64,000 bases of DNA from Candidatus Nanohaloarchaea archaeon (GTDB lineage: Archaea; Nanohalarchaeota; Nanosalinia; Nanosalinales; Nanosalinaceae): NCBI GenBank assembly GCA_042218075.1, contig JBDGRK010000022.1, forward strand, positions 1-64,000, written 5' to 3'. Under the pieces are notes generated by a model. It saw only the letters and a list, made by a program, of their open reading frames with translations. It did not search any database and had not been told where the DNA came from. Below, piece by piece: positions 16,003 through 62,268 of this stretch; within the stretch, counting starts at the first letter, position 1; every line of letters begins with the position of its first letter. A program made the translations under genes and the position numbers.

Positions 16003-17232
16003 TTACTTCTCTATCTCAATAACATCCAGCTCTACGCATTCCGCCTCACATCCCAGGATTCCGGCGACGCTCGGCTGCGTCCTTCCTTCATCGCCGTGGA
16101 TAAGCTCCTTTATGTAGGTCCCAGCCTCCGCTTTCACTTCAAGCTCGATTATATCGCTATCCAGCTTTTCAGCCTCTACCGAATAAACTTGCCTCTCCCT
16201 TGTCTTGTCGGCTCTCCTGTGCTTTACCCTGTCTGGCGTGTCCTGCTCCACTTCTCCAACAATCTGATTCAGCTCCTCCAGTTCATCCTCATCCACATCT
16301 GCTGACAGCTCTATCTCCGCCCTATAAGTCTTGTCAGCGTGCTTCTGTTTGATCTCCTCCACCTCGTCCTTATCAGCGAACCTCAGGTTGAAGATCTCAA
16401 CTTTATCACCTTCGTTCACCTCTTCCTGAAGCGAATCAAGATCAAGCTCGCGGTTCAGCGGCTCCTTTAATTCGAGTATAAACTCCCTCTTGCCTAGACA
16501 TTTAGCATTCACATCCTCTCTGCCTCCGCCGTGGAACTTGGCCTCTATAGCCTTCGATTCACGCTTGAAAGGCTCCTGTATCTCCTCCTGTACAGAGGTC
16601 TGGTACTGCTTGCCTGTCCAGTCGCACTCGTCGCACCCGTCTCCTCTGCAGTTCCTGCAATGCCATTCCGTCTGCGGTATCTGCCTCGAATACTTGTTGT
16701 ACTGGCCGTAGATCAACAGGGAATTCACCTGTAGCTCAACTCTATCCTTGGACTCTTCCATCTCAATTACTGCGTTAATGTCCGGCCTCTTGAAGTCAAC
16801 CTCCAGATCAAGCTCTTGCTCTATCCTCTTTCCAATCAGCCGGGAAAGCTCAGTCTTTACCGGCTCAACCCATTCAAGACCGTAATCCTCCCAGAGTTCT
16901 TCCTCTGCTTCAATCACACTGTTTGGCGGCCTTATTCCAATCAGGAAAGTATCAAGCTCATAGCGCTCGAAAGAATTATCCACTAGCTCAATCCAGTGAT
17001 CCATCTTGTCAAAAACGTTCTGGCATACCCAGCAGCTTCCTCCAGGTTCAGCATCTTCCGGAATGTTCTCTCTTACAAAAGAATCCTCCTCGAGTTCATC
17101 AATTTCCCTGCAGATAGCGCCTCTCTCGTAATTTTCGAGCCCATGACCCAGCTTGGCGAACTGCCTCCCGAGGCAGTGTTCACACAGATTCTCTTCCAGC
17201 AGCGCGTCTCTTTTCTCCTCTACGGAAAGCAT
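16003..17232 (-). CDS. pus10: tRNA pseudouridine(54/55) synthase Pus10
   Basis: CEHCLGRQF, HGGGREDV, AGTYIKELIHGD. Confidence 0.93.
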   Translation of the reverse strand: MLSVEEKRDALLEENLCEHCLGRQFAKLGHGLENYERGAICREIDELEEDSFVRENIPEDAEPGGSCWVCQNVFDKMDHWIELVDNSFERYELDTFLIGIRPPNSVIEAEEELWEDYGLEWVEPVKTELSRLIGKRIEQELDLEVDFKRPDINAVIEMEESKDRVELQVNSLLIYGQYNKYSRQIPQTEWHCRNCRGDGCDECDWTGKQYQTSVQEEIQEPFKRESKAIEAKFHGGGREDVNAKCLGKREFILELKEPLNRELDLDSLQEEVNEGDKVEIFNLRFADKDEVEEIKQKHADKTYRAEIELSADVDEDELEELNQIVGEVEQDTPDRVKHRRADKTRERQVYSVEAEKLDSDIIELEVKAEAGTYIKELIHGDEGRTQPSVAGILGCEAECVELDVIEIEK

Positions 17233-38370: not shown

Positions 38371-38520
38371 TGGGAAGGCCGGGGATCGAACCCGGGACCT
38401 CTGCGTAGCTCATTTCTGCACCAAACTTCGGATGGGATTTTTAATCATCGAGTCTCCCGACTCTCATCGCTCATACAGCAAGTATGAGCGCAGCGCTCTA
38501 TCCGACTGAGCTACCTTCCC
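38371..38520 (-). tRNA. tRNA with CAT anticodon (probably elongator Met) and a 76-nt intron at 37/38 (38407-38482)
   Basis: Full cloverleaf GGGAAGG/CCTTCCC, CTGCG/CGCAG, TTCGATC; BHB helix CTCA/TGAG with 3-nt bulges; no encoded CCA. Ile2 not formally excluded. Confidence 0.92.
38407..38482 (-). ncRNA. Intron-encoded, circularly permuted box C/D guide RNA candidate targeting C34 of the host tRNA
   Basis: Guide GTATGAGCG, box D ATGA, stem GAGTC-GGGA-GACTC, box C ATGATTA, 10-nt spacer, D' CCGA. Confidence 0.7.
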
Positions 38521-38625: not shown

Positions 38626-38791
38626 TGGGTTCGCCCGGATTTGAACCGGGGATCTCCGCCACTCCGACCGCGAAGCTGATCCTCTATTCGTCGAAACTCT
38701 CAGGTTCTTCGAGTTTCTCAGCCTCACATCTCGCCGACGGCGAGAAGTTCGGGTGTCAAGGCGGTGTCATAACCAGCTAGACCACGAACCC
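38626..38791 (-). tRNA. tRNA-Val(GAC) with a 92-nt intron at 37/38 (38662-38753)
   Basis: GGGTTCG/CGAACCC, CCGCC/GGCGG, TTCAAAT; BHB helix TTGA/TCGG with bulges CA|C and AG|T. Confidence 0.92.
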
Positions 38792-61893: not shown

Positions 61894-62268
61894 ATGGCAT
61901 ACCAGAAATTTGAAGCTTCGGATTCGCTCGCGGAAAAAACCTACAACGCTATTGAGGATGCTGACGATACGGGCAAGGTCGTCATCGGTACTAACGAAGT
62001 GACAAAGGCTATAGAGAGGAATGAGGCAGAACTTGTGGTTATCGCCTCCGATGTATCGCCTGAAGAGATAGTCATGCACCTTCCCGCTCTCGCCGAGGAG
62101 AAAGACATAGCATATACCTTCGTCCCGGACAAGGAAGAGCTAGGTCTGGCAGCAGGAATTAACGTACAGAGCGCTGCTGTAGCGATAACTTCGGTTGGAA
62201 ACGCGGAAGACGATATCGACGATATCAAGCTAAAAACAAGGGAACTCCTGGACAAGGACGAAGAATAG
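61894..62268 (+). CDS. rpl7ae: 50S ribosomal protein L7Ae
   Basis: GTNEVTKAIER, DVSPEEIVMHLP, ELGLAAG. Confidence 0.96.
   Translation: MAYQKFEASDSLAEKTYNAIEDADDTGKVVIGTNEVTKAIERNEAELVVIASDVSPEEIVMHLPALAEEKDIAYTFVPDKEELGLAAGINVQSAAVAITSVGNAEDDIDDIKLKTRELLDKDEE

Follow-up and report, generated by a model that had tools for sequence, protein, structure and literature searches.

What does a 76-nucleotide (nt) intron do in the tRNA-Met(CAU) gene of Candidatus Nanohaloarchaea archaeon? The gene lies on contig JBDGRK010000022.1 of assembly GCA_042218075.1, and the window referred to throughout is the 64,000-nt stretch from position 1 of this contig; the genome assembly as a whole comprises 1.10 Mb in 40 contigs, with 46.9% G+C and 92% completeness. 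A prediction made from the letters of the window alone (the original prediction) had proposed that the intron is a circularly permuted box C/D guide RNA aimed at the wobble cytidine, C34, of its own tRNA, and that this two-motif guide is completed only by splicing and circularization. Our analysis points to a simpler element. The intron is probably, with a probability that we put at roughly 0.7, a box C/D-type guide with a single kink-turn (K-turn) that would direct the 2'-O-methylation of C34 (Cm34) in elongator tRNA-Met.

The guide itself is the 9-nt stretch GTATGAGCG (38476-38468), which, as originally predicted, is the exact reverse complement of C30 to A37 plus the first intron nucleotide (38490-38482). 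The fifth nucleotide upstream of the AUGA that follows, G38472, stands opposite C34 (38486), which is the N+5 geometry that had been claimed for it, and the guide is thus placed directly upstream of box D with its target opposite the fifth nucleotide. The AUGA, the GAGUC/GACUC stem with its GGGA loop, the GAU bulge, and the AUGAUUA that had been listed downstream are all where they were said to be (Table 1). Read together, they have the topology NNGA, a Watson-Crick stem capped by a loop, a 3-nt bulge, GA, and U, that is, a K-turn with a closed canonical stem; a U.U pair adjoins the tandem G.A pairs, such that the sequence-level hallmarks of a K-turn (tandem G.A/A.G pairs, 3-nt bulge, U.U pair, and adjoining stem) are all present. 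The guide also lies inside a bulge-helix-bulge (BHB) intron at position 37/38 of the very tRNA that it would target, with the splice sites in the bulges U36,A37|C and C,U|A38 (the 3' site in the latter) of a standard hBHBh' motif. That box D precedes box C was a fair description of the topology, which equals the internal D'/C' order with the stem closed by a loop. Internal C'/D' boxes are looser than the terminal-box consensus. "Circularly permuted" is likewise acceptable as a name for this topology (it amounts to one terminal C/D half whose stem has been closed and whose spacer has been opened), although a circle is not needed, given that the K-turn and guide are complete in the linear precursor.

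Table 1. Coordinates of the tRNA-Met gene, the parts of its intron, and the L7Ae gene in the window
Feature	Position	Strand	Basis or remark
Elongator tRNA-Met(CAU) gene	38520-38371	minus	Rfam RF00005, 55.3 bits; aragorn with introns; sequence
tRNA-Met 5' exon; 3' exon	38520-38483; 38406-38371	minus	Rfam, aragorn -i, sequence
C34, wobble cytidine, predicted 2'-O-methylation target	38486	minus	Pairs with G38472
tRNA-Met intron, 76 nt, canonical 37/38 site	38482-38407	minus	aragorn with introns; sequence
6-nt spacer that opens the intron, 5' of the guide		minus	Sequence
Guide GUAUGAGCG (DNA letters GTATGAGCG), 9 nt	38476-38468	minus	Complementary to C30-A37 plus intron nt 1
D-like box AUGA	38467-38464	minus	Non-bulged strand of the K-turn; GA = 2n,1n
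C-stem hairpin GAGUC-GGGA-GACUC, 5 bp	38463-38450	minus	Sequence; predicted fold
GAU bulge	38449-38447	minus	Sequence
C-like box AUGAUUA	38448-38442	minus	Bulged strand of the K-turn
Tandem GA; then UUA	38446-38445; 38444-38442	minus	Sequence
Variable tail, 29 nt	38441-38413	minus	Includes AAAATCCCAT, CCGA, and CAGAAA
AAAATCCCAT (spacer of the original prediction); CCGA	38441-38432; 38431-38428	minus	Present as letters
CAGAAA, outer helix of the BHB	38418-38413	minus	Pairs with UUGCUG, 38481-38476
BHB strand with UGAG (38412-38409)	38412-38407	minus	UGAG pairs with C32-A35; read from the sequence
L7Ae gene	61936-62211	plus	PF01248, 100 bits; would be the expected K-turn binder

The CAU tRNA is read as an elongator tRNA-Met, since a separate initiator-like CAT tRNA is encoded elsewhere in the genome (C10:60703), a tRNA-Ile(UAU) with a 115-nt intron is present to serve AUA (C40:52022-52209, minus strand), and TiaS_FLD was not found in the genome, whose completeness is 92%. 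The last two observations also led us to reject a tRNA-Ile2 identity. The acceptor stem begins GGGAAGG, which in our reading is unlike that of an initiator. As an aside, the combination of an encoded tRNA-Ile(UAU) with no TiaS_FLD found suggests that AUA may be read without agmatidine in this organism, as is reportedly the case in Nanoarchaeum equitans. At the Rfam E-value threshold, only two tRNAs pass in the window, namely, this gene and an adjoining intron-bearing tRNA gene on the same minus strand (55.3 and 50.7 bits), and the intron is without any match; a 21-bit match to sR2 at 16237-16293 was dropped, the location reading as acidic coding sequence.

The arrangement of guide and K-turn exceeds chance within this genome. 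Among its scorable intron-bearing tRNAs, a complement of at least 7 nt that covers nt 34 occurs only in Met (9 nt) and Trp (7 nt), and only in these two introns is the complement followed by ATGA at the N+5 distance; six other tRNA genes have any complement covering nt 34, of 5 to 6 nt each. When the 1.10 Mb was scanned for a strict box/stem/box pattern ([AC]TGA, a stem of at least 4 bp, and [GA]ATGAT[TC]), six sites were returned: four in long open reading frames, one at what is likely a start codon, and this intron. Stand-alone half-mers with these boxes were not found in the genome by this strict scan, which is blind to 3-bp stems and to large inserts (the Trp intron is among those missed for the latter reason).

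The tRNA-Met gene was compared by BLAST with 40 genomes of the same order, drawn from five families, and was located in 33 of them. Guide and K-turn are present in 32 of these 33, comprising 28 complete genes and those of G007 (cut by a contig end), G025, G034, and G028. With the window's own gene, the 28 complete genes make up the 29 orthologues referred to below, all of which read [U/G][A/G]UGAGC-N-[A/C]UGA, a hairpin, and [G/A]AU-GA-U[U/C]N. In each of the 29, a G stands opposite C34 at N+5 within 7 to 13 contiguous pairs; the guide core UGAGC is kept in all of them, as well as in G007, G025, and G034, and reads UGAGU in G028. The bulge is GAU in 27 orthologues and AAU in 2, the U.U pair at 3b.3n is found in 29/29, and the boxes stay intact while the hairpin between them ranges from 14 to 172 nt. 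At the BHB strand, 26/29 carry UGAG or a G.U-compatible variant, the other three having AGAG, CGAG, and AGGG. When named genomes were scanned with a pattern, most of the records that came back were Candidatus Nanohaloarchaea, Nanosalina, and Nanohalobium, with near-identical genes, which places the genome in a nanohaloarchaeal (DPANN) lineage. Thus, of the parts that the original prediction expected to recur in orthologous introns, the guide and boxes do, whereas the second motif (see below) does not.

Conservation of the stem is accompanied by covariation. With a script anchored on the boxes, C-stem pairs -1 to -5 are kept in 29, 29, 28, 25, and 25 of the 29 orthologues, respectively; the closing triplets come in 12 different versions, and sliding the partner strand lowers the pairing. 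In a MAFFT alignment of 11 short orthologues, the pairs of the named structure form in 100% of 108 cells, compared with 24 to 44% in slid registers, and two of the three closing stem pairs change on both sides (MAFFT splits the stem, and only these three pairs were counted there, the deeper ones coming from the box-anchored script). A further proposal, that the C-to-A change in box D and the G-to-T change in box C compensate for each other, fared less evenly. The D-like box is AUGA in 19/29 orthologues and CUGA in 10/29, and the latter carry AUGAUC[U/C/A]; the 4b.4n combination is A:U in 19/29, as compensation would have it, but C:C in 10/29, and it is mixed in the second phylum described below.

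The same design recurs in tRNA-Trp introns. In the window's own genome, whose tRNA-Trp intron measures 170 nt, and in five relatives, it is directed at C34 with N+5 spacing in 6/6 cases, taking the form GGAGU-N-[A/C]UGA, a stem that sometimes branches into two hairpins, and then GAUGA. These Trp introns (L061-L066) have a further feature in that they keep CGGAU[A/C]U, a complement to positions 38-42 together with the final two bases of the intron, where the classical U39 guide is positioned; a D box is absent after it in 5/6, where a [G/C]GCC hairpin stands instead.

The design also extends to a second DPANN phylum. Two further matches of the pattern scan, from a metagenome-assembled genome (MAG) labelled Woesearchaeota and from an uncultured archaeon, are genuine tRNA-Met genes with introns of 44 and 54 nt, which consist of guide, D box, hairpin, and C box and then a remaining 9 to 13 nt that include the BHB strand. 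In the phylum of this MAG, the strict pattern occurs in 46/401 sampled genomes (including G041 itself and the unpublished genome G364), relative to 0/401 for a reversed-pattern control. Thirty-one loci were parsed. C34 lies at N+5 in all of them, the introns measure 39 to 66 nt in the 26 whose 3' exon is placeable, and the D/C box pair is A:U in 22, A:A in 4, C:U in 2, and C:G, C:C, and A:G in 1 each. The Woesearchaeota-labelled tRNA-Met (L039, 3960-4020) apparently has a second intron in the D-arm region, which is why aragorn missed it.

Since the boxes are short and degenerate, the resemblance could in principle be fortuitous and the intron devoid of function. This explanation is refuted by the conservation across the order and in a second phylum, by the stem covariation, and by the zero matches to the reversed pattern, and we give it practically no weight. 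Given that, among the introns scored in this genome, the design is confined to those of Met and Trp, is conserved order-wide, and has a covarying stem, the guide reading is favored.

Is there a second motif? According to the original prediction, CCGA would serve as box D', ATGAGCT as box C', and AAAATCCCAT would belong to a second guide that becomes functional only after excision and circularization. The letters are indeed present in the window, RtcB is encoded, excised archaeal tRNA introns are circularized (PMC7714728, PMC3326292), and a permuted C/D small RNA (sRNA) that needs circularization, sRNA24, is reported in N. equitans (PMC3491384). The letters do not persist, however. A D-like tetramer 8 to 14 nt after the C-like box is found in only 4/29 orthologues, the window included, and in 0/4 of the other genomes of the same genus, while ATGAGCT contains TGAG (38412-38409), which pairs with C32-A35 in the canonical BHB and is accounted for by that strand. 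The tails range from 17 to 84 nt, are conserved in neither sequence nor length, and are no longer than 25 nt in 8/29; whole introns of 39 to 69 nt keep the first motif only, with some 10 to 20 nt after the C-like box, BHB strand included. Many orthologous introns leave no room for a second K-turn, so that no circularization is needed; the single K-turn and its guide are already whole in the linear precursor, and the elements that would span the junction show no conservation. The window intron therefore lacks the conserved pair of motifs (C/D and C'/D', separated by about 12 nt) of a two-motif guide, and it does not have the sRNA24-type arrangement in which box order and guide are complete only in the circle. 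When the genome was searched for a second target with ATGGGATTTT, two exact matches were returned, one of them the sequence itself, relative to 2.1 expected by chance, in an assembly in which no small-subunit or large-subunit rRNA gene was found. Nor does the Met tail show a second guide of the Trp type with its own D box, since no complement to positions 38-43 was seen there by eye and no D box is conserved after the C-like box. We consider the two-motif, circularization-dependent guide highly improbable.

Some tails have features of their own. In one subclade, UUCUGGA in the loop of the K-turn hairpin complements UCCAGAA in the tail, a conserved match of 7 to 8 bp (a pseudoknot) that occupies the position a second guide duplex would take (L016, L017, L019, L021, L022, L053, L055, and L057). 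A pairing of GGGA (38458-38455) in the window's loop with UCCC (38437-38434) in its tail is visible by eye in some close relatives; G012, G021, and G017 lack it, and the pairing was set aside as unproven. The tRNA-Met introns of family f3 (L024-L029 and L033) have a conserved YUGNGAY some 14 to 17 nt after the C-like box, together with a CCAACAAAC stretch, and may have retained a second element resembling box D, which family f1 is without.

By nearest-neighbor estimates for naked RNA, the minimum-energy fold of the window precursor (-56.7 kcal/mol) holds the 9-bp guide/anticodon hairpin and the C-stem, and forcing the anticodon stem and the BHB helix is predicted to cost 5.6 kcal/mol. For 25/29 precursors, the minimum-energy fold includes the guide hairpin, and the BHB-enforced fold is less stable in 29/29, by 2.2 to 15.6 kcal/mol. 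These predicted folds support the earlier suggestion that guide/anticodon pairing competes with the splicing fold. They would also suit an intron whose K-turn hairpin is an L7Ae-binding or folding element and whose anticodon complement masks the loop or times splicing, with no methylation involved. The presence of one K-turn only is in keeping with such a role, as are the hairpin modules that are flanked by GA but have no C/D boxes, found in many of the genome's other introns. A mask has no need of a fixed register, yet C34 sits at exactly N+5 in 29/29 Met orthologues, 31/31 other-phylum genes, and 6/6 Trp introns, and the conservation of the U.U pair and AUGAU core exceeds what a bare K-turn would call for. 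Moreover, Met and Trp are the tRNAs known for guide-made Cm34, according to PMC7994747 and PMC4033218. We therefore regard masking without methylation as unlikely.

Several observations nevertheless weigh against a single-K-turn guide for Cm34. Both boxes depart from the consensus, RUGAUGA and CUGA, in that AUGAUUA has a G6-to-U change and AUGA has a C1-to-A change, and the 4b.4n position is C:C in the 10/29 orthologues noted above. The intron has a single K-turn, whereas efficient archaeal methylation reportedly needs both the C/D and the C'/D' motif (as Tran et al. are said to have found in 2003). In the guide helix, 6/7 pairs never vary, the anticodon loop being invariant, which leaves no scope for covariation. 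The gene was not located in 7 of the 40 relatives (G006, G010, G011, G013, G015, G016, and G036), where the weak matches are other tRNAs, and in one relative, G038 (L112, G038:C1), the tRNA-Met intron is only 16 nt long and has neither guide nor K-turn. Finally, the guides of the other phylum are often only 5 to 7 bp in the 31 parsed loci, a shortness that favors action within the same molecule. As for G038, its congeners G032 and G034 retain guide and K-turn, which would fit either a recent loss in G038 or a guide supplied in trans. On balance, the element behaves like a box C/D RNA on every testable count yet is not a canonical member of the class, since the second motif is lacking.

The proteins that a guide of this type would need are encoded. 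In addition to L7Ae in the window, the genome has fibrillarin (on C4) and Nop5 (on C7), the two proteins on whose presence the original prediction had staked itself, and all three are above the Pfam cut-offs; the splicing endonuclease EndA is also encoded, as is RtcB. We infer from the sequences that protein binding and methylation take place as follows. L7Ae would bind the K-turn formed by AUGA, the closed C-stem, and GAU-GA-UUA, and Nop5 and fibrillarin would assemble on the L7Ae-bound K-turn. The 7 to 9 nt upstream of the D-like box would pair with the anticodon loop of the same transcript, and C34, at N+5, would be 2'-O-methylated. The guide-target hairpin in the precursor would exclude the BHB fold, and because it does so, a switch to the BHB fold would have to precede cutting by EndA, exon joining by RtcB, and circularization of the intron. 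Action in cis on the precursor is likely, and one K-turn might satisfy the Nop5 dimer if, for example, two introns were bound per dimer.

A broader proposal can be made, namely, that DPANN archaea (Nanohaloarchaea and the phylum containing Woesearchaeota-labelled genomes) use a natural half-mer C/D ribonucleoprotein (RNP), with one K-turn, a 5- to 9-nt guide, and box D before box C, in cis in pre-tRNA-Met and pre-tRNA-Trp and that, because the guide hairpin is predicted to be more stable than the BHB, C34 methylation or release of the RNP licenses splicing. We offer this tentatively and would sooner wager against it than for it. If it were true, these precursors would contain a built-in checkpoint that places modification before splicing, and one K-turn would be enough for site-specific action by fibrillarin. 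Half-mer box C/D RNAs with one K-turn and one guide were reportedly engineered for RNP structures (by Ye in 2009 and Xue in 2010); those are laboratory constructs, whereas the element in the window would be natural, conserved, and closed at its stem by a loop.

How does the intron compare with known systems? A literature search on nanohaloarchaeal tRNA-intron guides and tRNA-Met intron guides returned one direct precedent (Randau 2012, PMC3491384), which the original prediction had correctly cited. There, the 66-nt elongator tRNA-Met intron of N. equitans is described as an RNA that is abundant as well as stable and was proposed as a C/D box sRNA; its box D follows the consensus, its box C has U changed to G at position 30, and six G.C pairs make up a hairpin. 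Both introns lie in tRNA-Met and combine a hairpin with a single box D and a single box C, whereas that of the window has AUGA/AUGAUUA rather than CUGA, is without the extra G.C hairpin, and belongs to a halophilic lineage. No target is named in the available main text of Randau 2012, in which C34, "wobble," and "anticodon" have 0 mentions. One genome of our other-phylum sample, G101 (L080; about 0.5 Mb), has an intron of 66 nt in which CUGA, a short hairpin, and GAUGAU are accompanied by a hairpin of six G.C pairs and position 30 is a G; this intron fits Randau's description, and its guide puts C34 at N+5. The element in the window is of the same kind as the intron RNA of N. equitans tRNA-Met and is real, though not without precedent.

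The classical tRNA-Trp intron guide has both C/D and C'/D' motifs. As summarized in three papers (PMC7994747, PMC4033218, and PMC3326292), the euryarchaeal tRNA-Trp intron is a box C/D guide (Clouet d'Orval 2001; Singh 2004) that resembles the window intron in being directed at its own C34, in following the N+5 rule, and in a pairing that cannot coexist with the BHB. After excision in Haloferax, this intron is a stable circle. The classical Trp intron guides modification at both C34 and U39, whereas the window intron has one K-turn and one guide. For elongator tRNA-Met, PMC4033218 states that Cm34 in haloarchaea is made by a box C/D RNP, namely, sR-tMet of Haloferax volcanii (Joardar 2011), whose substrate, judging from the title of that paper, is the intron-containing precursor; the Haloferax tRNA-Met intron is given as 75 nt in PMC7714728. 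In contrast with the nanohaloarchaeal guide, which lies inside the intron, sR-tMet is a separate, trans-acting gene. Human SNORD97/SCARNA97 similarly direct Cm34 of elongator tRNA-Met(CAU) but, according to PMC6601510, are eukaryotic, trans-acting, canonical small nucleolar RNAs.

The guide reading would provide a sequence-level rationale for a long tRNA-Met intron in very small archaeal genomes, in that the intron would carry its own wobble-methylation guide, and it would assign a target, C34, to the RNA class first seen in N. equitans. The dozens of candidate natural single-K-turn guides, with hairpins of 8 to 172 nt, would also be material for asking whether two motifs are needed and how modification is coupled to splicing.

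The other tRNA introns of the genome show some further patterns. The neighboring tRNA gene (38626-38791, minus strand), with an intron of about 92 nt at 37/38, reads by eye as tRNA-Val(GAC), although aragorn labels it Ser(gga). A tRNA-Val(gac) adjoins the Met gene in 18/29 orthologous loci (L005-L033), with or without an intron; the window's own locus, L004, carries the label Ser(gga). The tRNA-Val intron contains CUGA, GAAACUC..GAGUUUC, and GA, that is, a GA-flanked hairpin without a C-type box. Across the genome, aragorn -i calls introns of up to 226 nt in 27 to 28 of 36 to 37 tRNAs, depending on settings, and several of the calls are imperfect.

A 21-nt hairpin module of the type GAGAAGAUC-UCU-GAUCUUCGA is repeated in at least eight tRNA introns, seven of which were found by scan (C10:87932, C10:102671, C13:14690, C23:87231, C23:110171, C37:2313, and C40:45939) and the eighth by eye (Arg, C23:7032). 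Its stem has compensatory A:U/G:C changes, and its GA..GA flanks could form tandem sheared pairs. The module is possibly a second L7Ae site or k-junction, or else a mobile intron module. It also occurs outside called tRNAs, for example, at C10:114085, C10:88352, C19:2620, and C15:64928, and inside the enlarged Met and Trp K-turn hairpins of several relatives.
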